A program made the position numbers and the translations under genes. Of a stretch of DNA of 64,000 nt, positions 2,139-60,984 are shown piece by piece; position 1 is the stretch's first letter, and each line of letters opens with the position of its first letter. The stretch comes from Candidatus Yonathbacteria bacterium RIFCSPLOWO2_01_FULL_43_27 (GTDB lineage Bacteria; Patescibacteriota; Minisyncoccia; Phycocordibacterales; UBA1550), in NCBI GenBank assembly GCA_001823545.1, contig MHUV01000003.1, positions 6,718 through 70,717 of the forward strand, in the 5' to 3' direction. The notes beneath the pieces are model-generated. The model saw nothing but the letters and a program-made list of their open reading frames with translations, had not been told where the DNA came from and did no database searches.

Positions 2139-2699
2139 ATGAATAAAAAGGTTCTCTGGATTATAGTGCTTGTTTTGCTGGTGTTGGGTGGTGAAAAAGT
2201 AATAAAAGTAGACAACGAAGAGGTTCTTTCTATTCCATCGCCTCGCATTTTTCAAGAAGAAGCACATGAACCGCTAATTCAAAAGACCTTATCTACTGTT
2301 CTTCGTGTTATTGATGGCGATACTATCGAGGTGAGCCGTAATGGCATATCTGAAAAAGTACGGTTAATTGGTGTAAATACTCCAGAAACAGTTGATCCGC
2401 GCAAGAAGGTGGAGTGTTTTGGTAAAGAAGCGTCACGATTTGTAACGGACATCCTTACCGGAACATCGGTGTCTCTTGAAGCAGACGTGAGTCAGGGTGA
2501 ACGTGATCGCTATGGACGCTTACTTCGATATGTCTATCTTCCAAATGGCACACTACTCAACAAAACAATTATTGCTGAAGGATACGGGTATGAATATACC
2601 TATCGTGTTCCCTATCGTTATATGAATGAGTTCAAGGAAGCTCAGTCTTCTGCTAAAAAATTACAAAAGGGACTTTGGGCGGATGGTGTTTGTGAGTAA
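2139..2699 (+). CDS. nuc: Secreted thermonuclease (staphylococcal nuclease / SNase family)
   Basis: Signal/TM N-terminus MNKKVLWIIVLVLLVLGG. SNase core LRVIDGDTIEV...VRLIGVNTPE...GRLLRYVY...KGLWADG. Divergent from the DEDDh exonuclease gene with a ~39-bp gap. Confidence 0.8.
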   Translation: MNKKVLWIIVLVLLVLGGEKVIKVDNEEVLSIPSPRIFQEEAHEPLIQKTLSTVLRVIDGDTIEVSRNGISEKVRLIGVNTPETVDPRKKVECFGKEASRFVTDILTGTSVSLEADVSQGERDRYGRLLRYVYLPNGTLLNKTIIAEGYGYEYTYRVPYRYMNEFKEAQSSAKKLQKGLWADGVCE

Positions 2700-2775
2700 G
2701 CTGGCTTTAGTTATTTCTTATTAGCGACGTAGAGCAAGTGAAGTGAGAAAGTAGTCTTTCTCACTTCCGAGCCGA
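2700..2775. repeat. Partial copy (3'-terminal ~70 nt, inverted) of the intergenic repeat family
   Basis: ttagcgacgtagagcaagtgaagtgagaaagtagtctttctcacttccgagccgaggaagctaatacgg matches 58150-58220 and the reverse complement of 29045-29115. Contains the hairpin GAAAGTAGTCTTTC region. Confidence 0.55.
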
Positions 2776-2807
2776 GGAAGCTAATACGGATTTCGTGTAT
2801 GTAAAAA

Positions 2808-6414: not shown

Positions 6415-7986
6415 TTATGGAGTTACATTAATATCAAGCTCTAATTTCAATGTCGGATTTGTTGCAGAATCAGTTTCTATATAGACGACCTTTTTTGCCG
6501 GACCCGCGCCTTGCGGTCCGTGCGCCGCTGGGTCTACCTCCACTTCGATTATAATTTCTTGTCCCGGTTTGACTATCTCATTTATTTTAGACGCAAGCCC
6601 GCCGTGCCCCGGCATACCAAACGGACCCTTACGAGATGTGCCATTTATAATGGTTGCTTCTGTACACATACAAGAAGTGGTAACACTGGCGATCTCTACC
6701 GAAGAACTACCAGTATTTTTTATCTTGAACGAATGACTAACTTTTCCGTTTTTCATCGAAACCGTGCCGAAATCAAAAGATTTCTCTGACGAAACAAGCT
6801 CGCTATAGTTGCCTTTGCCTGAAATTTCTGCATCTCTATACCACACACTAATCCCGTTTGGCATCTTACCCACGTTTATTTTCGCAACTTCTTTCTCCAT
6901 AGCAGTATCAATTATTGACACATCATCACTCTTGAGATTAGTAATGTACGCAAACTTCCCATTTTTAGAAACAGTAACTCCGTGAGGAGCAGACCCACTT
7001 TTGATAGCCTGTACTACGCTCATCTCCTTCAAATCAATCTTATAGATAGTATCGCCAATTGGCTGATCAAAATAGAACCCTTGATCGGCAACATACACAA
7101 AGCGTGAGTCAGGGGTAGGATAAAGCTGTACCGGTCCTTTTGCATCTTGTGGTAAATCAACGTAGCTCAATTTTGCCAAGGCAGTATCGTATACCGCTAA
7201 ACTTTTCGCGTCATACACTGAAGCTAGTGCATACTTCCCGTCTGGCGTGACACCTGTCTGCACTGCCGCACCATTGAGTGAAATGTCTTTTAAGTTGAAA
7301 CTATCGATATCAAGAACTCCCATACTTTTGCCCGACAACATCGCGATATATGCGGTTTTTCCATCTGGTGAGATACGAAGCCCATGAGGTCCACCACCTT
7401 TTTTTGTAGTAACTTCTTTCTCTACCTCAAACGAAGTAGTGTTTATTTTGTATATAATTCCCTTTTCTTGTGATGCGACAATGGCGTACCTGCTGTCGGG
7501 TGTTAAAGAAATATGCGAGAGGTGAAGTTCCTGCCCAATTTCAATCCTCTTTATAATTACGTCTGAGAATGGATCTATGACGATGACTTCGTCGTTGTTC
7601 CTTTGCATAGCCATCCCCTCCTCGCCGTGACCTGCGTTTGCTTCAGCTCTTGGTATGATACGAAACGACATTTTCATATTCTTCTCGTCTTCTGCGTTAG
7701 CGGTTACCCATACACTTTTATTATCCGGTGCAACTTGCACATTGTGTGGCATATAACTAACCGTTATGCCATCTGTATCCTTGGATAAATTTATTTTCTT
7801 TAAAACCTGTTTTGTCTGCGGATTGAGTACAGCGATTTCTCCGGAACCCTCAATTGCAACATATACTTTTTCTTCTACACGTAAGGAACTATTAATTTTG
7901 TTTTCCTGCTTGCCACTTCCGTAATTAATAATTACTCCAATTATCACGATCGCCACCAATACAATTATAATTTTAATATTTTTCAT
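6415..7986 (-). CDS. YVTN-type beta-propeller repeat protein fused to a C-terminal DUF1573-like domain
   Basis: N-terminal TM/signal. Repeated ~40-aa units with V..P DG/DS + ..Y(V/I)(A/T)N spacing typical of YVTN/lactonase-like propellers. C-terminus SFDFGTVSMKNGKVSHSFKIKNTGSSSVEIASVTTSCMCT matches the DUF1573 SC.CT signature. Confidence 0.6.
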   Translation of the reverse strand: MKNIKIIIVLVAIVIIGVIINYGSGKQENKINSSLRVEEKVYVAIEGSGEIAVLNPQTKQVLKKINLSKDTDGITVSYMPHNVQVAPDNKSVWVTANAEDEKNMKMSFRIIPRAEANAGHGEEGMAMQRNNDEVIVIDPFSDVIIKRIEIGQELHLSHISLTPDSRYAIVASQEKGIIYKINTTSFEVEKEVTTKKGGGPHGLRISPDGKTAYIAMLSGKSMGVLDIDSFNLKDISLNGAAVQTGVTPDGKYALASVYDAKSLAVYDTALAKLSYVDLPQDAKGPVQLYPTPDSRFVYVADQGFYFDQPIGDTIYKIDLKEMSVVQAIKSGSAPHGVTVSKNGKFAYITNLKSDDVSIIDTAMEKEVAKINVGKMPNGISVWYRDAEISGKGNYSELVSSEKSFDFGTVSMKNGKVSHSFKIKNTGSSSVEIASVTTSCMCTEATIINGTSRKGPFGMPGHGGLASKINEIVKPGQEIIIEVEVDPAAHGPQGAGPAKKVVYIETDSATNPTLKLELDINVTP

Positions 7987-8009: not shown

Positions 8010-8100
8010 AAAAGCGGTAGGTACCACAGGGTAAGCCACCCTTGTATTATTCCATTACATGGACGGTACACCTTGTCGCTCATAGTAAAAAAGCTCACTA
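8010..8100. repeat. Short member of the intergenic repeat family
   Basis: Begins aaaagcggta (the 5' terminus shared with 28841 and the rc of 58320). 8039..8073 is 35/35 identical to 28923..28957. Ends tgtcgctcatag (compare ctacgtcgctaatag). Confidence 0.55.
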
Positions 8101-8615: not shown

Positions 8616-9791
8616 TTACATTATTTGATCAATAATTTTTGTTTTTAAATTTTCCACTTTTCTCGTCTTTATCCGTTTAATAAACGGATACTCAACATAG
8701 CGATATGTGAGAGAAGAAACAGATATTGTTATAACCCCGCTAAACAGTATGAGAGACCAAAATACTGTTGGTGAAATTGATGTTATCGGATAAAAATAAT
8801 CTATAGAATTTAGTATCGCAAAAAGCATGATGCTGTGAATCAGGTACACACTGTAACTTATAGTTCCTAGAAACTTTGCCACCTCTGTCTTTAATAAACC
8901 AAAAAGATCAGCACCATATACAAAAGATAAGAATACTCCAAGTGAAATAAAGTATTGGGTAAAAGAATAAGGTTTGTAGCTGATAAAATATATGAGAACC
9001 ACTCCTAAGATGGGCACCAGTGATGATATCGACTTTTGGAAAAATTTAATTTCTGGATATTTTTTATATATATGAGCAGCCATGATGCCGAATAAAAATA
9101 TAGCCCAATATCCTCTGAGTGGAGAGGAGAGAGCAAAGAAGGCTAACGGCAGTGCCATGATGAACATCTTCTTGCCTTTAAGAGAAACCGCAAGAATAGG
9201 AAGCATAAGATAAAACACCCATTCAAAAGCCAACGTCCAATGAATACCTGCGTTTATGGGAAGAACACTTATATTGTTAACAGAGGTAGTGGTAATAAGT
9301 CCGAGAGAAAGGAAGGAGAGGATACCTTTTACTGTTTCTCTGATATCTATATCTAACCCTGATTGTATGAAAATTGAAAAAATAATTATTCCCGCGGTAA
9401 AAAGATACATCGGAGCGAGACGCAAAAACCTACTTCGGTATAAAGCTCCTGCATCTATGTCTCCTTTTTGCGCAATAGCTTTTGACCAATATAGGAAACT
9501 TGTAAGAATAAAAAACAAAATAACGGCTTCCCCACCTAAGTGTCTATAAAATCTGATAGGAACAATTTCCCAAACACCACTCTGAAAATAAAAATGACTT
9601 GTCACCGCATGCTGAAAAAATACATTTATTGCTAAAAAACCTCGGAGGCCATCAAGGGACTCAAATCTGCCTCGCTCCTCCTCCTTTATAATCTTTCTGT
9701 AAAATGGAAAATTTCTTACCAATAAAATACTAAATCCCACAAGGATCCCTAAAATCAAAAAATATATCCATATCGTAGTAAAATCAAGCAT
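8616..9791 (-). CDS. Acyltransferase family 3 (OafA/YrhL-like) integral membrane protein
   Basis: ESLDGLRGFLAINVFFQH motif characteristic of acyltransferase_3. About 10 predicted TM segments. Confidence 0.8.
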   Translation of the reverse strand: MLDFTTIWIYFLILGILVGFSILLVRNFPFYRKIIKEEERGRFESLDGLRGFLAINVFFQHAVTSHFYFQSGVWEIVPIRFYRHLGGEAVILFFILTSFLYWSKAIAQKGDIDAGALYRSRFLRLAPMYLFTAGIIIFSIFIQSGLDIDIRETVKGILSFLSLGLITTTSVNNISVLPINAGIHWTLAFEWVFYLMLPILAVSLKGKKMFIMALPLAFFALSSPLRGYWAIFLFGIMAAHIYKKYPEIKFFQKSISSLVPILGVVLIYFISYKPYSFTQYFISLGVFLSFVYGADLFGLLKTEVAKFLGTISYSVYLIHSIMLFAILNSIDYFYPITSISPTVFWSLILFSGVITISVSSLTYRYVEYPFIKRIKTRKVENLKTKIIDQIM

Positions 9792-9879
9792 CTAGGAATG
9801 TTGGTATCTTTTCAAGAAATATATTATAACAAATAAACACCGAATTGTATCGATGATTATTTGTTTAAATGCTGATTTA

Positions 9880-10377
9880 GTTGAGATACGGTGAAGTCTC
9901 GGTCAAGCGCTCGCTCGTCGCCTTATTTGCGGTAAATGAATCGGTCACAGATATTTTGTTCGCCCCTCGGTGAAGTCTCGGCCAAGAACATTTTTCCTCG
10001 TCGTCACTCGAAAAATTTCTCGGCCCTGCTCGGATGACCCATTCTACTGAATGGGTGCCCATCCTCGCTTTCGATTCCTTCACCTACCACGCAAACAATC
10101 GTCGCTCAATGCTCTGCATTGTTCTCCTTGTTTGCGGTAAATGAATCGGTCACAGATATTTTGTTCGTCGTCACTCATAAGATTCCGCGGTCACAGGTAT
10201 TTTTCTGCTGAAAAATCCCGCGACCCCTCCTCGCGCCGTCGCGCTCCGGCCTTGCGAAAGCTCCAAGTATTCGCTTTCTCACCCGGCTCGTGGTCTCGCG
10301 TGTTCGCTCGACAACACTCCGCCCTTCGATTCCTTCACCGTCGTAAAGCGTTGCTTTACGATACCCCTCGTTCACTG
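9880..10377. repeat. GC-rich repeat-rich non-coding island downstream of tRNA-Trp
   Basis: Exact 37-nt direct repeat tttgcggtaaatgaatcggtcacagatattttgttcg at 9926..9962 and 10131..10167. cggtgaagtctcgg at 9889 and 9968. cgtcgtcactc at 10000 and 10166. Inverted copies of the tRNA-Trp 3' end (ttcgattccttcacc) at 10069..10084 and 10325..10340. Hairpin cgtaaagc-gtt-gctttacg at 10342..10360. Confidence 0.6.
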
Positions 10378-10448
10378 CGGGCGGTGAAGGAATCGAACCC
10401 TCGACATCGGTTTTGGAGACCGAAGTTATACCATTTAACTAACCGCCC
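10378..10448 (-). tRNA. trnW: tRNA-Trp (anticodon CCA)
   Basis: Reverse complement GGGCGGT-TA-GTTA-AATGGTA-TAAC-T-TCGGT-CTCCAAA-ACCGA-TGTC-GAGGG-TTCGATT-CCTTC-ACCGCCC-G gives a full cloverleaf of 71 nt. CCA is not encoded. Confidence 0.85.
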
Positions 10449-10541
10449 TATCTTCGCGAGTATAGCAAAGTTTAGATGAAAAATGAAGGTGTGGACGACT
10501 ATACAAAAAAATACCCCTTGCGGAGTATTTTTTACGGAGTA

Positions 10542-10700
10542 TTATTTCTTTACTTCTTTGTGCACGGTGTGCTTCTTGCACCACTTGCAAAACTTTTCAA
10601 GTTCTATCTTTCTGGTGACGAGCTTCTTGTTTTTGCGTGACCAGTAGTTGACGCGCTTACAATTTTTACAGCCAAGTTTAATAAGTTGATCTTGTGACAT
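10542..10700 (-). CDS. rpmG: 50S ribosomal protein L33
   Basis: Manual translation gives MSQDQLIKLGCKNCKRVNYWSRKNKKLVTRKIELEKFCKWCKKHTVHKEVKK, the L33 zinc-ribbon pattern (C-x2-C ... C-x2-C). Missed by the ORF track because it is 52 aa. Confidence 0.8.
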   Translation of the reverse strand: MSQDQLIKLGCKNCKRVNYWSRKNKKLVTRKIELEKFCKWCKKHTVHKEVKK

Positions 10701-13210: not shown

Positions 13211-13253
13211 TAATAAAGGAACCTCGGGGCAAAGCTCCGAGGTTCCTTTATTA
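13211..13253. terminator. Perfect 17-bp stem hairpin, intrinsic-terminator-like
   Basis: taataaaggaacctcgg-ggcaaagct-ccgaggttcctttatta. Confidence 0.5.
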
Positions 13254-17249: not shown

Positions 17250-17293
17250 ACACTACATCATACAATAAAGTATGAAAAGTAAAAAGAGCGGTT

Positions 17294-17338
17294 CCATATT
17301 AAAAAACCTCGCCATGGTGGCGAGGTTTTTTAATATGG
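17294..17338. terminator. Perfect 21-bp stem palindrome flanked by A-run and T-run (bidirectional intrinsic terminator)
   Basis: ccatattaaaaaacctcgcca-tgg-tggcgaggttttttaatatgg. Confidence 0.6.
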
Positions 17339-17342
17339 AATG

Positions 17343-18502: not shown

Positions 18503-21340
18503 TTACCCCGTAACAATATTTATTAATTTACCCTTTACGATAATGATTTTTTTGATTTCCTGACCCCCTACCCATTTCACTACCATTTTTTCCTCCAGCG
18601 CGAGTTTCTGTATTTCCTCGTCAGAGGCAGATAAAGGGACGGTAATTGTTTCGCGTACTTTGCTGTTTACCTGAACGACAATAACGATCTCTTGCGCAGT
18701 CGTTTTTGATGGATCGTAGGTTGGCCACCGTGAGAGGTTGATTGACTCTGCGTTCCCGAGTGTATGCCATAGCTCTTCCGTAATATGTGGCGCAAATGGT
18801 GATAGGAGCACGAGGAGTGTTTCGTACTGTGAACGAAGTAGAACTGTTGCCTTCTCCATTTCATTTACCAAAATCATTAGCGCTGAGATTGCGGTATTGA
18901 AGTTAAATGATTCAATATCTTCCCCTACTTTTTTTATTGTCTTATGGAGAATTGACTCTACATCATGTGTGTCCCCTGCCGTGACAATTTTTTCTTGTAA
19001 ACGCCATACCCGCTCGAGAAAACGACGTGGTCCAATAATACTTTCGGTACTCCACGAAACAGATTGAGTAAATGGCCCCATAAACATTTCATACATGCGC
19101 ATCGTGTCTGCACCGTACTGATGGACCACATCATCAGGATTTATGACGTTGCTCCAGCGTTTGCTCATCTTGCGTCCATCGTTTGCCATAACCAAACCGA
19201 CGTTATATAAACGATTAAAAGGTTCCTCGTAATTCACCACCCCAAGATCGTACAAAAACTTATGATAGAATCGCGCGTAAATAAGGTGGCGCGTAGCGTG
19301 TTCAGCTCCACCGACATACATATCTACCGGTGACCAATATTGTTCTTTTGTATGCTCAACAAGTGCCGTGTCGTTCTTTGGATCCATATAACGAAGGTAG
19401 TACCACGATGATCCAGCCCACTGAGGCATCGTATTTGTCTCGCGTTTAGCAGGACCGCTACACGTTGGACAGGTCGTGTTTACCCAATCGGCAATATTCG
19501 CGAGTGGAGATTCTCCCGTTCCCGTAGGTTCGTACGATTCTACTTTTGGAAGAACTACGGGTAATTCATTTTCTGGTACTGCAACAACACCGCATTTTTC
19601 ACAGTGTACAAGGGGAATTGGTTCGCCCCAGTATCGTTGTCGTGAAAATACCCAATCCTCAAGACGGTACTTTGTTGTCCATTTCCCTTTTACAAAATGC
19701 GTGATATTTTTCTTCGCCTCTTCATTTGAAAGACCATTGAAATCACCAGAGTTAATGAGTACGCCACTGTCAATGTGTACCGCATCTTTTTCCTTGAGAC
19801 GAAGGAGCCAAATATCCATTTCCGCATGACACATCGTCACGGGGTTAATTTCTGATTCATCAAGCCATACGATGTCATTGTTTTCCTCTTCTTCTTTTGT
19901 AATCGAAGAACGCTCTTCATCTACCAATTCAGCATAGACCGCCGTGGTATACGAAACTCTGTTCTGGTCCTTATGCGCTGCAAAATACTCCGCGCGTACT
20001 TGCCCACCCAAAATTTGCTCGTTAGTGATATTTTTGTATCCCGTCTCCTCTAAAAGTTCTCGTCGCGCAGCATCAAGAACACTTTCTCCTTGTTCGACGC
20101 CACCCATAGGAAACGTAGTCCACCAATACTTCTTAGATTTCAAGCAAAGAAATTTCCCATTACGAGGATTTCGTATAATAACGTGCACATTTTCTCTTGT
20201 TACACTTTTCTTGCCGAGAACAGGAGGATTTCTCTTGTCGACTCTCTCAGGAATAATAACTTCTTTAACAGGAAGATGGTATTTTTTTGCAAAGGTAAAA
20301 TCTCGTACATCGTGTGCGGGTACTGCCATAACCGCTCCCGTACCGTAATGCGCAAGAACATAGTCTGCCACATACACAGGAAGCTCCTCGTTATTTGCGG
20401 GGTTTATCGCTATTACTCCTTTGAGCTGTACGCCTGTTTTTTCTTTACCAACAGCAGTGCGCTCTATTTCTGTTTTTATTTTTACCGCATCGCAATATGC
20501 TTCTACTTCGCTTTTATTAGAAACTTCCTCAAGGAGTTCACTCACGAGGGCGTGTTCTGGTGCCAATACCACATACGTCGCACCAAAAAGTGTGTCAGGA
20601 CGCGTCGTGAACACGGTAATTTTCTTGCTACCTCCCTTAATAAGGAAATCAATTTCCGCGCCTTCACTTCGCCCAATCCAATTTCGTTGTGATTCTTTGG
20701 TTGATGCGGGCCACTCAAGTTTATCGAGATCGGTAAGCAAACGGTCTGCGTAGTCGGTAATACGGAGCACCCACTGACGCATAGGTTTTTTCTCGATAAG
20801 GGTATCACATCGCTCACAACGGTCTCCGTCGAGGTCTTCGTTTGCAAGTCCCGTCAAGCATTTTGGGCACCAGTTAATAGGCTCATACGATTCATAAGCA
20901 AGACCTTTTTCGAACATTTTAAGAAAAATCCACTGTGTCCAACGATAGAAGTGCGGGTCAGTAGTATTTACTTCGCGTGACCAATCATAATCAAACCCCA
21001 GAATGGAGAGCTGTTCTTTATAACGAGCAACATTTTGTGCCGTCATAACCATCGGGTTAATTTTCATCTTGAGGGCGTAGTTTTCTGCGGGTAAACCAAA
21101 TGCATCAAAGCCCATAGGGTGAAGTACATTGAATCCCTGTAGTCTCTTCATACGAGAATACACGTCGGTTGCAATATAGCCCTTAGGATGCCCAACATGG
21201 AGACCCTCTCCAGAGGGATATGGGAACATGTCTAGTACATAGCACTTTGGTTTACTGATATCCTCTTTTGTATGATATAAGCCTGCCTTCTCCCATTGTT
21301 CCTGCCATTTCTTTTCTATCGTTCTGTGGTCGTAATTCAT
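18503..21340 (-). CDS. leuS: Leucyl-tRNA synthetase carrying an internal Nudix-box-containing insertion
   Basis: PYPSGEGLHVGHPKGY (HIGH), editing-domain TRPDTLFGATYVVLAPEH, KMSKR and the anticodon-binding domain are all present. A ~145-aa insert sits between AHDVRDFTFAKKYHLPVKEVI and GVLINSGDFNGL and contains GGVEQGESVLDAARRELLEETGY. Confidence 0.9.
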   Translation of the reverse strand: MNYDHRTIEKKWQEQWEKAGLYHTKEDISKPKCYVLDMFPYPSGEGLHVGHPKGYIATDVYSRMKRLQGFNVLHPMGFDAFGLPAENYALKMKINPMVMTAQNVARYKEQLSILGFDYDWSREVNTTDPHFYRWTQWIFLKMFEKGLAYESYEPINWCPKCLTGLANEDLDGDRCERCDTLIEKKPMRQWVLRITDYADRLLTDLDKLEWPASTKESQRNWIGRSEGAEIDFLIKGGSKKITVFTTRPDTLFGATYVVLAPEHALVSELLEEVSNKSEVEAYCDAVKIKTEIERTAVGKEKTGVQLKGVIAINPANNEELPVYVADYVLAHYGTGAVMAVPAHDVRDFTFAKKYHLPVKEVIIPERVDKRNPPVLGKKSVTRENVHVIIRNPRNGKFLCLKSKKYWWTTFPMGGVEQGESVLDAARRELLEETGYKNITNEQILGGQVRAEYFAAHKDQNRVSYTTAVYAELVDEERSSITKEEEENNDIVWLDESEINPVTMCHAEMDIWLLRLKEKDAVHIDSGVLINSGDFNGLSNEEAKKNITHFVKGKWTTKYRLEDWVFSRQRYWGEPIPLVHCEKCGVVAVPENELPVVLPKVESYEPTGTGESPLANIADWVNTTCPTCSGPAKRETNTMPQWAGSSWYYLRYMDPKNDTALVEHTKEQYWSPVDMYVGGAEHATRHLIYARFYHKFLYDLGVVNYEEPFNRLYNVGLVMANDGRKMSKRWSNVINPDDVVHQYGADTMRMYEMFMGPFTQSVSWSTESIIGPRRFLERVWRLQEKIVTAGDTHDVESILHKTIKKVGEDIESFNFNTAISALMILVNEMEKATVLLRSQYETLLVLLSPFAPHITEELWHTLGNAESINLSRWPTYDPSKTTAQEIVIVVQVNSKVRETITVPLSASDEEIQKLALEEKMVVKWVGGQEIKKIIIVKGKLINIVTG

Positions 21341-25466: not shown

Positions 25467-25488
25467 ACAGATAGTCAACAGACAACAG

Positions 25489-25519
25489 AAAAACCCCGCA
25501 AATAATTTGCGGGGTTTTT
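25489..25519. terminator. Bidirectional intrinsic terminator between convergent permease and ychF
   Basis: aaaaaccccgcaaat-a-atttgcggggttttt, with A-run and T-run flanks. Confidence 0.7.
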
Positions 25520-25537
25520 CTGTTGCTCTCATTAAAT

Positions 25538-27660: not shown

Positions 27661-28833
27661 ATGCCACACCATCCCGCAAAAAAAACAATGCTCCTTCTTG
27701 TGTATCTTGCAAGTTTTCTTTATTCGTTCCACTACGCACTCCCCCTCTATATCGAATCGTCATTCATTGCCCAGTTTCTTTCCACAGAAGAAATGATTGG
27801 CGTTATTTTTTCTATTGCCGCAATCATTTCTGTGGTAAGTATTTTTTTCTTTCCGAGAGTTCTTCGAAAATTTGGAAATTATCGTACCACGCTTGCAATT
27901 ATGGGGCTGGAAATTGCAACCCTTCTTTCGCTGGTGGCATTTTCAATACCGCTTGTTGTGGTGGGTCTCTTTATAGTACACCAAGCACTCCTTAGTCTTA
28001 TATTTTTAAACCTCGATACTTTTGTAGAGTCATACTCAGACAACCAGTCAACAGGAAGCATCCGTGGTGTTTTTATGACGGTTCTCAATATCGCGATAGC
28101 GATTGCGCCATTCCTTGCGGGACTTATGCTTACGGACCACGATTTCTGGAAAGTCTATCTCGCGGGAGCAATATTTATGTCCCTTTGCTTTCTGGTGATT
28201 GCGAAAAATTTTAAACACTACATTGACCCACAATACCTCGTGCCAAAGTTTAAAGATACAATAAAAACGGTGCTGAAAAGCCACGACCTTCATTCTGTCA
28301 TCTTTCTTCATTTCCTGCTCGCCTTCTTTTTTTCATGGATGGTAATTTATACACCTATCTATCTCAATAAGCACATTGGCATACCTATGAGTGATATCTT
28401 GAGCGTCATCATTCCTGTAGCACTCCTTCCCTTCATCTTTTTTGAAGCAATATTAGGCAGAATTGCGGACACGAAACTGGGAGAAAAGGAAATCGTTACT
28501 ATGGGGTTCCTTTTGATGGCAGTTGCCACCATGGGACTTTCGTGGATCACCTCAACCAGTGTTGTAGTATGGGCAGTTGCACTCCTTATTACCCGCATTG
28601 GCGCGAGCGCTGTAGAGTCTATGATTGAGAGTTATTTTTATAAAAAAGTAGGCCCCGAAGAAATCAATCTCGTAACCTTTATGCGTATGGTACGCGGAAG
28701 CGCTTATATTGTCGGACCACTTCTTGGCTCGCTCGTACTTTCGTTCATCAATTTCCGCTTCCTCTTTTTTACGCTTGGAATTATCGTTCTTACCAGTATC
28801 CCCTACACGCTCACGATCAAGGATACTAAATAA
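27661..28833 (+). CDS. MFS transporter
   Basis: 12 predicted TM helices in a 6+6 arrangement. Confidence 0.8.
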   Translation: MPHHPAKKTMLLLVYLASFLYSFHYALPLYIESSFIAQFLSTEEMIGVIFSIAAIISVVSIFFFPRVLRKFGNYRTTLAIMGLEIATLLSLVAFSIPLVVVGLFIVHQALLSLIFLNLDTFVESYSDNQSTGSIRGVFMTVLNIAIAIAPFLAGLMLTDHDFWKVYLAGAIFMSLCFLVIAKNFKHYIDPQYLVPKFKDTIKTVLKSHDLHSVIFLHFLLAFFFSWMVIYTPIYLNKHIGIPMSDILSVIIPVALLPFIFFEAILGRIADTKLGEKEIVTMGFLLMAVATMGLSWITSTSVVVWAVALLITRIGASAVESMIESYFYKKVGPEEINLVTFMRMVRGSAYIVGPLLGSLVLSFINFRFLFFTLGIIVLTSIPYTLTIKDTK

Positions 28834-28840
28834 AAGCGGT

Positions 28841-29115
28841 ATTTACCCCGAGGCAAAGCCCCGGTCAAAATGTGTTCGCTTCGCTCACCAATTTACCGCC
28901 CCAGAGGGGCAGGGTATTCAACCCTTGTATTATTCCATTACATGGACGGTACACCTTTTGGATTTTCTTTTCGTGATTACACGCAATAAAATCTCAAAAG
29001 GTCTTGCGAAGCTCCATGTATTCGCTTCTCACCTCGGCTCCCTGGCCGACTGCTGTCAGCGGGTTAGGCGGAAATGAGAAAGATTACTTTCTCATTTCAC
29101 TCGCTCTACGTCGCT
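28841..29115. repeat. Full-length (long variant) copy of the intergenic GC-hairpin repeat family
   Basis: Termini aaaagcggtatttacc ... ctctacgtcgctaatag. Hairpins CCGGGGC-ttt-GCCCCGG (as its complement here), CCGCCCC-aga-GGGGC(A/G)GG and GAAATGAGAAAG-attac-TTTCTCATTTC. Versus 58150-58320 (inverted) it carries a ~130-bp internal insertion that includes the 35-mer shared with 8039. Confidence 0.65.
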
Positions 29116-29120
29116 AATAG

Positions 29121-31622: not shown

Positions 31623-31663
31623 TACTTCTTAATCTAATACAAAAGACGGCGTTGCGCCAGTTT

Positions 31664-31705
31664 TCTTACAAAAAGATGCCGAGACTGAGCTCGGCATCTT
31701 TTTGT
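31664..31705. terminator. Perfect 19-bp-stem palindrome; bidirectional terminator
   Basis: cttacaaaaagatgccgag-actg-agctcggcatctttttgtaag. Confidence 0.6.
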
Positions 31706-31713
31706 AAGAAACT

Positions 31714-43726: not shown

Positions 43727-43849
43727 GATTGAAAATTATAACACGAAATGGTGCTTTTTGAAAGATGCGCGGCGCCGATGCACGGCAGTGCATACCTTCC
43801 TGCTCCAACAAAGTACTCCTTAGTAAAGATATGTTATCTGAAGAAAACA

Positions 43850-43887
43850 ATATCGACGTATAATATACTATAGTATATTATACGTCG
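43850..43887. repeat. 38-bp perfect AT-rich palindrome in the uvrB upstream / DKNYY downstream intergenic region
   Basis: atcgacgtataatatactatagtatattatacgtcgat is exactly self-complementary. Confidence 0.5.
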
Positions 43888-43965
43888 ATATTTATTTTAT
43901 TTATAATTTATAACAAGCAAACAAAAAAGTTGCTTAGTTATTTCCTAGCTCTATGGAAGTTGCAA

Positions 43966-58114: not shown

Positions 58115-58149
58115 AAACCACCTTCGAACAAAAGGTGGCTCTCGGTATG

Positions 58150-58320
58150 TTTATTAGCGACGTAGAGCGAGTGAAATGAGAAAGTAATCTTTCTTATTTC
58201 CGAGCCGAGAAGCCAATACAAGGGTATAATACCCCGCCCCTCTGGGGCGGTAAATGTGTGAGAAGCGAATACATTTTGACCGGGGCTTTGCCCCGGGGTA
58301 AATACCGCTTTTATCTATAC
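58150..58320. repeat. Short-variant copy (inverted relative to 28841) of the intergenic GC-hairpin repeat family
   Basis: ttagcgacgtagagcgagtgaaatgagaaagtaatctttcttatttc...ccgcccctctggggcgg...gaccggggctttgccccgg...taccgctttt. Confidence 0.65.
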
Positions 58321-60518: not shown

Positions 60519-60591
60519 TCCGTGATAGCTCAGTCGGTAGAGCGCCTCGCTGTTAACGAGGATGTCCCAGGTTCGAGCCCTGGTCACGGAG
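60519..60591 (+). tRNA. trnN: tRNA-Asn (anticodon GTT)
   Basis: TCCGTGA-TA-GCTC-AGTCGGTA-GAGC-G-CCTCG-CTGTTAA-CGAGG-ATGTC-CCAGG-TTCGAGC-CCTGG-TCACGGA-G; 73 nt. Confidence 0.9.
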
Positions 60592-60604
60592 CAAAAACAG
60601 TTAT

Positions 60605-60640
60605 GCCCCCGATATGAAAATATCGGGGGTTTACTGTTTT
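60605..60640 (+). terminator. Intrinsic terminator immediately after tRNA-Asn
   Basis: gcccccgatat-gaaaa-tatcgggggt followed by ttactgtttt. Confidence 0.7.
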
Positions 60641-60940
60641 CTCACGTGACCAGGGCTCGAAAGACGGAGGTCGCGAAGCCGATTTGAGCAAAGCGAAAAT
60701 CGTAGACCGAGTCGGGGTCGAGAGTACTTATGAGCAAAGCGAATTAGTAACTCGTGACCGCGCCCTGGTCGGCAAGCATTGATTAAGGGCTCGAACGCCG
60801 GAGCTATACCGAGCGAGCTACTCCGTGCGTCCGCACGGACGCTCTAGGAGCACAAAAGGTAGCGAGGCGGTGCCCAGACCGAGGCGAGTGACGACGAGCT
60901 GAGAGTCGAGGGAGAGATCCCTGGTTGTGTGGTTAGCAAA
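60641..60940. repeat. GC-rich repeat-rich non-coding island downstream of tRNA-Asn
   Basis: An inverted copy of the tRNA-Asn 3' end (cgtgaccagggctcgaa at 60645..60661, 17/18 match). Internal repeats gagcaaagcgaa (x2) and gtgacc(ag/gc)g..cctgg. Shares words (gagtgacgacga, cgagcgagc, gaccgag) with the tRNA-Trp island. Confidence 0.55.
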
Positions 60941-60941
60941 A

Positions 60942-60984
60942 AACACCCATACGAATATGGGTGTTTTTTGCTACCTTGAATAAG
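60942..60984. terminator. Perfect 16-bp palindromic hairpin, bidirectional-terminator-like
   Basis: gcaaaaaacacccata-cgaa-tatgggtgttttttgc. Confidence 0.6.

Follow-up and report, generated by a model that had tools for sequence, protein, structure and literature searches.

What is the GC-rich, non-coding island that follows the tRNA-Trp gene at this locus, and why does it hold inverted copies of the 3' end of that very tRNA? The locus lies in a window (the whole 64-kb stretch of DNA that was analysed) and is read on the minus strand, where rpmG (10542-10700, Pfam L33 in the gene table) is followed by tRNA-Trp(CCA) at 10377/8-10448 (ARAGORN; Rfam 67.6 bits), in which the CCA end is not encoded. 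The GC content of the island (9870-10376) is 0.52, that of the window 0.42, and the island ranks among the 500-nt windows that are richest in GC. It contains a 37-mer that is repeated exactly at 9926-9962 and 10131-10167 (chance expectation 0 matches), the copies being spaced by 205 nt, and the repeat extends to 42 nt with one mismatch or to 45 nt with two. In addition, CGGTGAAGTCTCGG occurs at 9889-9902 and 9968-9981, and TCGTCGTCACTC at 9998-10009 and 10165-10176. The sequence TTCGATTCCTTCACC is found on the plus strand at 10070-10084 and 10325-10339 and on the minus strand inside tRNA-Trp (10383-10397), yielding three matches compared to 0.21 expected, a number reached in 0/100 shuffles. 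The tRNA-proximal copy is part of a perfect 16-bp inverted repeat (10325-10340/10382-10397), and the sequence cgtaaagc-gtt-gctttacg forms a hairpin at 10342-10360.

The original prediction had placed the tRNA, rpmG, the GC-rich non-coding island and the 37-nt repeat at their correct positions, and the two pairs of repeated words, the 16-bp inverted repeat with the tRNA 3' end and the hairpin are confirmed as well. The inverted copies of the tRNA 3' end that it listed are both present, with the first starting at 10070 instead of 10069. The expectation that secE-nusG should follow tRNA-Trp is untrue for this lineage, since the genes 3' of rpmG and tRNA-Trp are varied among relatives. Two ways of explaining the island away, namely that the 37-mer is an ordinary dispersed repeat or that close relatives lack the island, find no support: the 37-mer has no further copy elsewhere in the 64-kb window, and relatives carry homologous islands.

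A protein-coding island was rejected, as the three open reading frames are without a Pfam match and overlap covarying stems, which agrees with the earlier view that they are not credible genes. At gathering and permissive thresholds of Rfam 15, only tRNAs pass, so that the island has no match to a known RNA; the best other score in 9700-10600 is 21.7 bits against 60. The islands of the relatives L003, L098, L025 and L091 likewise returned tRNAs only. Candidates such as tmRNA, RNase P, SRP, 6S, ribozymes, group II intron domains and HEARO fall below the Rfam gathering thresholds, and a hammerhead or other ribozyme or a K-turn, considered because of a three-way junction and a GGA/GA loop, has no Rfam support. 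ARAGORN, run at 90% thresholds with introns of at most 250 nt and in tmRNA mode, detected no tRNA pseudogene, intron-containing tRNA or tmRNA in 11 islands. A phage or plasmid origin was rejected too, the tRNA itself being the sole similarity of the island to such DNA.

The inverted tRNA copies are an integral and recurrent part of a unit and not a peculiarity of the Trp locus. [quoted passage not shown] A conserved two-stem core follows, and D', which repeats the tRNA 3' end in direct orientation, comes last. The core starts with TCGAA-RGRCGGAG, followed by stem A with a GGA/GA internal loop and by stem B, which has the base GGGTCG..CGTGACC and a conserved G.U pair. Cores are complete, ~90-125 nt long and built of covarying stems, with whole units measuring 100-250 nt. 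A covariance model of the core, R1, gave 16 matches in 1.26 Mb searched on both strands, all of them 3' of tRNAs and on the tRNA strand, and 10/16 were outside the training sequences. With filters off, the significant matches in the window are confined to its two tRNA islands. Among six alpha cores from four genomes and three tRNA types, 15/22 pairs are compensatory. Three units folded with z-scores between -5.8 and -7.0 and an Asn unit with one of -2.9, while the D-loop-I segments form near-perfect hairpins of 70-110 nt (z -5 to -14.5 at six loci, DNA parameters). The sense strand is purine-rich and is more stably folded than the antisense strand in 11/11 islands. Furthermore, D' is followed by an intrinsic terminator at the Asn, Gly, Thr and Leu loci, as is expected if D' is the displaced original tRNA end. 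The unit family, which is confined to tRNA gene 3' ends in Parcubacteria/Paceibacteria, is previously undescribed, and a literature search yielded no relevant prior description of such a tRNA-linked family.

The Trp island consists of two complete units, one nested core and a partial duplication, all on the minus strand. D, the 3' part of tRNA-Trp (positions 54-73; 10377-10397), is the 5' arm of a 73-nt palindrome (10325-10397; fold z -8.9). The tip of this D-loop-I palindrome of unit 1 is a perfect 8-bp hairpin, CGTAAAGC-AAC-GCTTTACG (10342-10360), which is evident in the sequence and in folds and is without a U-tract. The opposite arm, I1 (10325-10340), is an inverted copy of tRNA-Trp positions 54-69, reads CGGTGAAGGAATCGAA on the tRNA-sense strand and is 16/16 complementary to 10382-10397. 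Core segment 1a (10267-10329), comprising the TCGAAGGGCGGAG motif and stem A, matches R1 with filters off (E 8e-4) and is orthologous to the L003 alpha core (92.7% identity across 96 nt). Core segment 1b (10189-10257) is compact and complete (TCGCAAGGCCGGAG .. GGGGTCGCGGG-hairpin-CCTGTGACC; R1 39.7 bits, E 2e-7) and apparently nested within unit 1. Core segment 1c (10152-10188) is a stem-B-only remnant (partial R1 match, E 0.017) that ends in GAGTGACGACGAACAAAATATCTGTGACC; alpha-type units share this conserved right end, which is also found in L125, L123 and L003. A hairpin module in this region, GAGAAAGC..GCTTTC (10248-10289), is shared with an intergenic island at 29000-29040 (43 nt, 88% identity), where one base pair is lost on both sides.

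Unit 1 runs out in repeat copy 1 (10123-10167; 45 nt including the 37-mer), which contains the unit right end ..ATCTGTGACC together with D'1 (10130-10147), a degenerate direct copy of the tRNA-Trp 3' end that reads GATTCATTTACCGCAAAC in the sequence; the homologous site in L003 is a perfect 20-nt copy, CGATTCCTTCACCGCCCGCA. The loop/hairpin of unit 2 (beta) lies between D'1 and I2 (10085-10129), and its inner hairpin CAATGC-AGA-GCATTG covaries with L003. I2 (10070-10084) is the second inverted copy and covers tRNA-Trp positions 54-68. The unit 2 core (9980-10074), with stem A GGATGGGCACCCATTCAGTAGAATGGGTCATCC and a stem B carrying the loop GAGTGACGACGAG, was outside the R1 training set and scores 48 bits (E 5.6e-8), and 17/62 of its pairs are compensatory in comparison with L003 and L098 (three Trp beta units). 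The unit is closed by CCGAGACTTCACCG (9968-9981), in which positions 61-69 of the tRNA 3' end are repeated directly as a partial copy; it is homologous to ..GCCGAGACTTCACCGCGCCCGCA in L003. The adjoining segment (9889-9962) is a local duplication made up of repeat copy 2 (9918-9962), CGAGCGAGCGCTTGA and a second CCGAGACTTCACCG (9889-9902), where L003 has a single copy. The 37-mer is a conserved unit right end plus a degenerate tRNA 3' copy, duplicated recently. On the tRNA strand, no terminator-like hairpin with a T-run is met before 9838-9855, just beyond the island.

The same architecture is found on the plus strand in the tRNA-Asn island of the window (60593-60940). From position 54 onward, tRNA-Asn(GTT) (60519-60592; ARAGORN and Rfam) provides the 5' arm of a palindrome of 90 nt (60572-60661) that is centred on a terminator hairpin (60606-60629) and folds with a z-score of -14.5. 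Asn unit 1 (60645-60775; R1 89.4 bits) comprises I, CGTGACCAGGGCTCGAA (60645-60661), an alpha core (60657-60759) and a degenerate D', GCGCCCTGGTCGGCA (60760-60775). Asn unit 2 (60787-60973; R1 29.9 bits, E 4e-5, outside the training set) has a short I, GGGCTCGAA, a core (60791-60913) and D'', TCCCTGGTTGTGTGGTTAGCA (60918-60938), and is closed by a strong terminator (60934-60973). No strain variation was seen at tRNA-Asn, the contigs being identical except for N-runs. Part of the sequence of the window is also present in the Paceibacteria assembly GCA_001825065.1.

Among related genomes, the architecture recurs at tRNA-Trp in L003, L098, L123, L125, L126 and L137, at tRNA-Gly in L098, at tRNA-Leu in L025 and L123 and at tRNA-Thr in L082, while L091 retains a remnant only. 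Synteny via S16 yielded only L003, nearly all of 80 species representatives being without rpmG/tRNA-Trp beside rpsP, and L33 homologues were a better route to related tRNA-Trp loci; a metagenome scan with the tRNA-Trp 3' end gave 16 matches, mostly unrelated, of which L091 and L098 were useful. At every element-bearing locus examined, I and D' match the local tRNA. The core family is found behind Trp, Asn and Leu tRNAs, and related cores behind those for Gly and Thr, with inverted-match scores of 22-44 downstream of tRNAs compared to at most 18 upstream. The D' copies in the window are degenerate, and perfect ones span 23 nt in L025 and 19 nt in L126; across loci the duplicated length ranges from 13 to 23 nt. 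At the same tRNA, unit type and number vary between relatives. L098 is without the tRNA-proximal unit, and repeats of the tRNA 3' end mark both edges of this indel; in L003 they are perfect over 20 nt. This indel could also be a deletion between direct repeats instead of an insertion. No genome carries near-identical cores at two different tRNAs, and a recent burst is therefore not apparent.

The reading that we favour, with a probability of about 0.42, is that the Trp island is an array of structured non-coding elements of tRNA 3' ends, stacked by site-specific insertion with the help of a trans-acting enzyme. The stacks of units probably arose through repeated site-specific insertion into the tRNA gene end; mobility itself, a single-stranded intermediate and the position of the crossover are what we infer. 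Each unit would insert site-specifically into the T-loop/3' end of a tRNA gene, the incoming element replacing the tRNA 3' end with a functional one of its own and adding a hairpin or terminator, and the previous tRNA 3' end would be shifted downstream to become D'. Repeated insertion would then produce stacked units, with the newest adjoining the tRNA. D and I would be the two arms of a hairpin carried by the element, so that, once folded, the single strand would resemble the end of the tRNA gene in duplex form. If strands were exchanged in the 5' arm of this hairpin, the result would be exactly the order D-loop-I-body-D' that is observed, and this is how CTXphi integrates at dif. In CTXphi, two inverted target-like sites fold into a hairpin attP (PMC3089051). 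Furthermore, single-stranded DNA inoviruses are predicted in the candidate phyla radiation (CPR), and inovirus prophages have been recorded with att sites in tRNA genes (PMC6813254).

The recombining enzyme would have to act in trans; the gene tables of the 64-kb window hold no recombinase, Rep, transposase or reverse transcriptase, and an autonomous relative of the units with open reading frames was not found. Pattern scans found no unit copies in viral contigs either: the tRNA 3' end matched a phage tRNA that is rich in GC and unrelated, the alpha-core pattern had 0 matches, and the 7 matches of a gamma-core pattern all represent one unrelated coding sequence in GC-rich phages and are therefore chance matches. 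Several points count against insertion. At 150-250 nt, a circle would be very small for anything that replicates, a single recombinase would need to handle many different tRNA sequences, the D-I palindrome of Trp unit 1 has a 21-nt asymmetry, the purine-rich loops and G.U pairs are equally compatible with RNA, and the joint change of D and I is not accounted for.

The need to handle many targets is addressed by a tentative and somewhat unlikely proposal, according to which the elements would be a hitherto unrecognised miniature mobile class that integrates as folded single strands into the tRNA T-loop, with targets chosen by nucleic-acid pairing and not by a sequence-specific integrase. D would rebuild the tRNA and I would pair with it, and target choice set by pairing would explain how one core family occurs at Trp, Asn and Leu tRNA genes and related cores at those for Gly and Thr. 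In a variant of this proposal, the units could also be expressed as RNAs that mimic an acceptor arm.

Expression is central to a second explanation, which we regard as unlikely, in which the island would be a tRNA-linked structured non-coding RNA, transcribed as a long tRNA 3' trailer and processed to a putative functional RNA. I would pair with D' in a helix of 12-17 bp, which would imitate the acceptor/T-stem stack of the tRNA and close a three-way junction. This acceptor-arm mimic could be cut by RNase P and RNase Z, or by similar enzymes, to release an RNA of ~130 nt, with candidate roles such as a regulator, decoy or sponge. Functional tRNA-trailer RNAs are known, such as 3'ETS-leuZ, as are tRNA-like processing signals, such as plant t-elements and mascRNA. 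In agreement with this, the units are co-oriented with the tRNA in every case, the first terminator-like site on the tRNA-Trp strand comes past the island, no promoter-like site was seen within it, and all four compact units that were folded are predicted to have the I:D' closing stem and the junction. The covariation, the conserved G.U pair, the purine-rich loops and the strand bias in stability also fit an RNA, as does the retention of the discriminator base and the following 'CA' in D'. However, strong intrinsic terminators separate the tRNA from I at the Asn, Thr and Gly loci, and different unit types are stacked behind a single tRNA. The patchy presence of the units, their varying number and type among close relatives and the frequent degeneration of D' or I do not befit an essential host RNA, and the units have neither an Rfam family nor a tRNA-like call at relaxed thresholds.

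Returning to insertion, the original prediction had listed decayed scars of integration into tRNA-Trp as one possibility, beside a structured non-coding RNA and a structure for tRNA processing or regulation, and of its options the scars come closest: direct repeats flank the units and the L098 indel is present, but random decay does not agree with cores that are complete and covarying. Its remark that no integrase is left holds for the gene tables covering the window. Taken literally, as prophages or genomic islands of tyrosine integrases that have been almost wholly deleted, leaving att-adjoining sequence, decayed scars are improbable. Tandem fragments are present, and direct repeats of the tRNA 3' end that start in the T-loop are reportedly the classic signature of tRNA-targeting integrases. 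On the other hand, complete units of similar size, in which a covarying core abuts I and D', would not result from random deletion at 12 loci, an inverted copy is foreign to classical attP/attL/attR sites, and there are no integrase remnants and no phage or plasmid similarity. Passive local rearrangement, by quasi-palindrome template switching at the tRNA terminator and unequal crossing-over with neither an element nor a function, would suit D-loop-I palindromes centred on terminator-like hairpins, the clear recent local duplication in the window (the 45-nt repeat and the second CCGAGACTTCACCG) and the Arg-rich open reading frames, as at tyrT, but is very improbable, since it cannot account for a covarying core common to different tRNAs and genomes, leaves the fixed inner boundaries unexplained (I ends at the T-loop and D' begins near position 56/57), meets no head-to-tail array in TRF and is already disfavoured by the covariance-model result.

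Genomes of the CPR are small and have few recognisable mobile DNAs, and the units are a compact, conserved non-coding family at many tRNA 3' flanks in which the target is copied both ways. If the units are mobile, hairpin-mediated single-strand integration would extend from dif/attI sites to tRNA genes, with a trans-acting recombinase that reads structure or pairing instead of sequence, which would be of interest for programmable insertion. Should the units be RNAs, they would form a new class of tRNA-linked RNA. The units also matter to annotators of CPR genomes, as they give rise to spurious Arg-rich open reading frames and their long palindromes fall at contig ends and N-runs in some assemblies; the covariance model can be used to mask or catalogue them.

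Several known systems resemble the units in part. TIGR arrays have 8-12-nt dual repeats and 9-nt spacers in 36-nt units beside a Tas/Nop gene (PMC12045711). A CRISPR or TIGR array was rejected here on unit size and for lack of periodicity; the two copies of the repeat lie 205 nt from each other, and the neighbouring genes include neither Nop nor Cas. Like REP/BIME/REPIN sequences and MITEs, the units are short, GC-rich, hairpin-forming, non-coding, intergenic and modular, but their terminal repeats are inconstant and copy the local tRNA, and the core is found only behind tRNAs. A MITE was rejected because the terminal repeats (I/D') are locus-specific and the duplicated length is not fixed, and a REP/BIME-like dispersed repeat because the R1 core occurs only in tRNA-downstream islands (1.26 Mb) and the 37-mer nowhere else in the window. 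The genome of the window also has a dispersed REP-like repeat family.

Downstream of E. coli tyrT lie 3.14 copies of a 178-bp repeat, in which the final 19 nt of each copy come from the 3' end of tRNA-Tyr, and these repeats hold the Arg-rich tpr open reading frame. Direct tRNA 3' end copies repeated downstream and Arg-rich open reading frames are thus common to tyrT and the units, but the tyrT repeats are confined to a single locus, head-to-tail, without inverted copies and without a family across tRNAs. In the Trp island, TRF detects no tandem repeat and the alpha and beta units differ, yet one local duplication is present. Plant mitochondrial t-elements, mascRNA and 3'ETS-leuZ share with the units an acceptor-stem-like helix beside a tRNA and a transcript that tRNA-processing enzymes could shape, whereas the units are without a cloverleaf or T-loop mimic; we know of no sequence-matched copies of the neighbouring tRNA in any of these three.

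The elements of tRNA-targeting tyrosine integrases are similar in that direct repeats starting in the T-loop flank the insert, the tRNA is restored and insertions stack downstream. Direct repeats of the tRNA 3' end likewise flank the units, perfectly in L003, L025 and L126. In contrast to such integrative elements, the units are 100-250 nt long and non-coding, have no integrase or kb-sized cargo, and add an inverted target copy and a conserved two-stem core. An integron cassette with attC, which would have R''/R' core sites (RYYYAAC/GTTRRRY) and intI close by, was rejected, as GTTRRRY is absent from 9880-10376, and neither Xer nor intI genes occur in the gene tables of the window. A further likeness is with CTXphi and other IMEX and with integron attC, in which an inverted target-like pair folds into a hairpin mimicking the duplex target, arrays are formed and the structure is strand-specific (PMC3089051). 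D-loop-I supplies such hairpin-capable inverted target sites at six loci, and the integrated order predicted for CTXphi/IMEX, target - loop - inverted copy - body - target (PMC3089051), is the order found at the element-bearing tRNA loci examined. Unlike CTXphi and attC, the units, for which a single-stranded form is putative, are directed to a tRNA gene instead of attI or of dif with its XerC/XerD-binding arms, and have a body of only ~100 nt.

The tRNA-Trp(CCA) gene (10377-10448, minus strand) comes after rpsP and rpmG and is followed, as the original prediction had it, by an island of raised GC content (0.52 at 9880-10376, the 500 nt past the tRNA on the minus strand, compared to 0.42 in the window) whose ORFs have no Pfam match. 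Both exact copies of the 37-mer direct repeat described for this island were recovered (9926-9962 and 10131-10167); chance alone would produce none. The repeat grows to 45 nt if two mismatches are allowed. Two plus-strand copies of TTCGATTCCTTCACC, claimed as the reverse complement of the tRNA 3' end, were likewise found (10070-10084 and 10325-10339), and a third lies within tRNA-Trp on the minus strand, giving three matches compared to 0.21 expected. The nearer copy and tRNA-Trp positions 54-69 form a perfect 16-bp inverted repeat, and the proposed perfect 8-bp hairpin is located between that copy and the tRNA 3' end. Since the island sequence is identical in independent assemblies, an assembly artefact is excluded.

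On the tRNA-sense strand, the island is built from units of five parts: D, hairpin, I, core and D'. D covers the tRNA 3' end, starting around T54, with a few trailer bases, and I is its reverse complement. D' is a direct copy downstream that spans from near tRNA position 56/57 to a few bases beyond the discriminator; it is perfect in the closest relative L003 (20 nt) and in the related loci L025 (23 nt) and L126 (19 nt), is degenerate elsewhere, and is normally followed by another terminator. D, trailer, hairpin and I make up a continuous quasi-palindrome of 70-110 nt (folding z of -5 to -14.5), in which the hairpin at the Asn, Thr and Gly loci is a true intrinsic terminator. The core of ~90-125 nt opens with TCGAA-RGRCGGAG and contains a stem A with a conserved GGA/GA internal loop and a stem B with the base GGGTCG..CGTGACC and a conserved G.U pair. 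TCGAA is kept even with a divergent tRNA T-loop, as at L082 Thr, and thus belongs to the element itself instead of being a tRNA-derived copy.

Behind tRNA-Trp, all on the minus strand, the first unit consists of the tRNA itself as D, the hairpin (10342-10360), I1 (10325-10340), core segment 1a with stem A (10267-10329), a nested compact core 1b (10189-10257) preceded by a hairpin module common to 29000-29040, a stem-B remnant 1c (10152-10188) and a degenerate D'1 (10130-10147). The second unit comprises a hairpin (10085-10129), I2 (10070-10084), a core of the beta type (9980-10074) and the partial D'' CCGAGACTTCACCG (9968-9981), and is followed by a local duplication (9889-9962) and the first terminator-like site (9838-9855). 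The 37-mer joins the conserved right end of alpha-type units (..CGAACAAAATATCTGTGACC), also present in L125, L123 and L003, to a degenerate D', and its second copy is the product of the local duplication.

The same arrangement is found behind the sole other tRNA in the window, tRNA-Asn (60519-60592, plus strand). Here, a terminator hairpin is followed by CGTGACCAGGGCTCGAA, the reverse complement of tRNA-Asn's own positions 54-70, by a GC-rich stretch that has words in common with the Trp island, by degenerate direct copies of the tRNA-Asn 3' end and by a second, final terminator. This two-unit island (60572-60973) contains a 90-nt palindrome (T54, terminator, inverted copy) and two cores. Among the loci used for comparison, the arrangement is present behind tRNA-Trp in L003, L125, L126 and L137 (an array of ~750 nt), tRNA-Trp and tRNA-Gly in L098, tRNA-Trp and tRNA-Leu in L123, tRNA-Leu in L025 and tRNA-Thr in the distant relative L082. 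S16 identity is 96% between the window and L003, and 82-87% between the window and named Yonathbacteria MAGs; the host belongs to the Parcubacteria and is Yonathbacteria-like. In local alignments, inverted copies reach scores of 22-44 in the ~200 nt that follow element-bearing tRNAs, mostly within ~70 nt, compared to at most 18 in upstream controls. The arrangement is absent at the sampled L132 Tyr and Trp, L138 Trp and Leu, L126 Leu, L137 Leu and Ala, L082 Thr-CGT and L091 Leu, and at L091 Trp the unit is reduced to a 17-nt right-end remnant. In this small sample, element-bearing tRNA genes (10377-10448, 60519-60592 and related loci) encode no CCA and have trailers beginning with C, mostly CA; no element accompanies the CCA-encoding tRNAs (L132 Tyr and Trp, L082 Thr-CGT). 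A different long palindrome follows L138 tRNA-Trp (2652-2790; GTCATTCCCGCGAATGCGGGAATC ... GATTCCCGCATTCGCGGGAATGAC) and has no relation to the tRNA sequence.

Aligned across four genomes and three tRNA identities, six alpha-type cores show compensatory changes in 15 of 22 pairs. The covariance model R1, built from these cores and run on both strands of 89 Parcubacteria sources (1.26 Mb), gave 16 matches at E <= 1, all in tRNA-downstream islands and on the tRNA strand. Ten lie outside the training set, including window 9980-10074 (E 5.6e-8) and 60791-60913, L003 7288-7382, L098 436-530, L123 5814-5904 and two in L137. Searching the 64-kb window without filters gave six significant segments only, all in the two tRNA islands. 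The Trp beta units of the window, L003 and L098 show compensatory changes in 17 of 62 pairs, with the adjoining L33 gene nearly unchanged. Furthermore, in all 11 islands folding favours the sense strand over the antisense strand, and the sense strand has more G than C and more A than T; structure therefore matters on the tRNA-sense strand, either as RNA or as single-stranded DNA. The strand bias and G.U pairs are compatible with a tRNA-linked structured RNA, the Trp strand has no terminator before the island end, and in the predicted fold a three-way junction is closed by an I:D' helix of 12-17 bp that mimics the acceptor/T-stem stack. However, at other loci strong terminators precede I, the units are distributed patchily and their copies decay, making an RNA possible but rather unlikely.

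In L098, the beta unit directly follows tRNA-Trp, and in L003 and the window an alpha unit sits between tRNA-Trp and the same beta unit. The edges of this indel are the repeated tRNA 3' end, beginning in the T-loop, although deletion between direct repeats could also have produced the L098 state. The units behind tRNA-Trp vary among relatives in type and number (alpha+beta, beta, alpha, delta-like, long array). Such turnover, degenerate copies and mixed types stacked at one tRNA are the expected output of site-specific mobile DNA. Scars of large integrase-bearing elements are an improbable source, as the cores are uniform, complete and covarying and no integrase remnant was found. Passive quasi-palindrome formation with unequal crossing-over, as at E. 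coli tyrT, accounts for the local 45-nt duplication but leaves a core common to different tRNAs and genomes unexplained, and is very improbable. Known RNAs, CRISPR/TIGR arrays, attC sites, MITEs, REPs and pseudo-tRNAs each miss a defining feature.

Several other repeats and palindromes occur in the window and in related loci. A separate dispersed intergenic repeat family (window 2698-2787, 8027-8074, 28827-29119 and 58132-58317; copies 85-98% identical; for example TATTAGCGACGTAGAGCGAGTGAAATGAGAAAGTAATCTTTCTCATTTCCG) recurs in distant Parcubacteria (L039, L079, L028) and within the L137 tRNA-Trp array, and is not matched by R1. Hairpins with variable AT-rich stems and the conserved loop GAGCGAAGCGA, which includes the GCGAAGC mini-hairpin sequence, number 20 in 1.28 Mb compared to about 1 expected (L014, L016, L017, L018, L019, L027, L091, L098; window 28876, 60686, 60732), and often stand right behind stop codons, followed by CCCAGTTAAATGATTTC. 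Between rpmG and tRNA-Trp, L003 carries a ~400-nt non-coding insertion (6590-6985) that the window lacks, containing a perfect 54-nt palindrome (6864-6917) and having no Rfam match. A core-like module in L091 (9360-9470, minus strand; GGGGTCGGG-hairpin-CCCGTGGAGG .. GAAAACCGTGGGTTTCC), similar to the cores behind L098 tRNA-Gly and L082 tRNA-Thr, lies directly past the rpmG stop codon and not behind a tRNA. Near-perfect intergenic palindromes of 43-51 nt (88-100%) at window 13211-13253, 17292-17340, 25483-25525, 31662-31711 and 43849-43892 are probably bidirectional terminators. In other samples, the palindromic islands behind tRNAs coincide exactly with a contig end (L002, 6465) or N-runs (L105, L104), and CPR assemblies are apparently broken up by these elements. 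The gene tables also list a Pfam NUDIX domain in the 945-aa leucyl-tRNA synthetase (18503-21340, minus strand), an unusual combination.

Full-text literature searches found no account of elements that flank tRNAs and bear matched inverted and direct tRNA-end copies, and Rfam 15 holds no family of such units. There is a real chance that they are either a novel RNA family or miniature elements of a novel class, and the clear, recurrent and structurally conserved pattern makes it worthwhile to look directly for the enzyme or RNA. As mobile DNA, a unit would start as a single-stranded circle in which D and I are the two arms of a hairpin. One strand exchange between the hairpin 5' arm and the tRNA gene would yield, in order, the left flank, the tRNA 5' part joined to element D, loop, I, body, the element joined to the old tRNA 3' end, and the right flank. 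This is the observed order D - loop - I - core - D'; the old terminator would end up after D' and the newest unit would adjoin the tRNA. The window gene tables contain no recombinase, Rep or reverse transcriptase, no autonomous relative was found, and searches of viral contigs and for phage/plasmid similarity found no viral or plasmid copy; the acting enzyme, the single-stranded form and present-day mobility are therefore what we infer. Single-stranded DNA inoviruses are predicted for CPR hosts, and att sites in tRNA genes are on record for inovirus prophages (PMC6813254). In CTXphi, integration at dif proceeds through a forked hairpin formed by two dif-like sites in inverted orientation, the same route as proposed here for the tRNA units (PMC3089051). 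Taken together, we rate the units as extending two known themes, site-specific elements at tRNA genes and hairpin-mediated integration.
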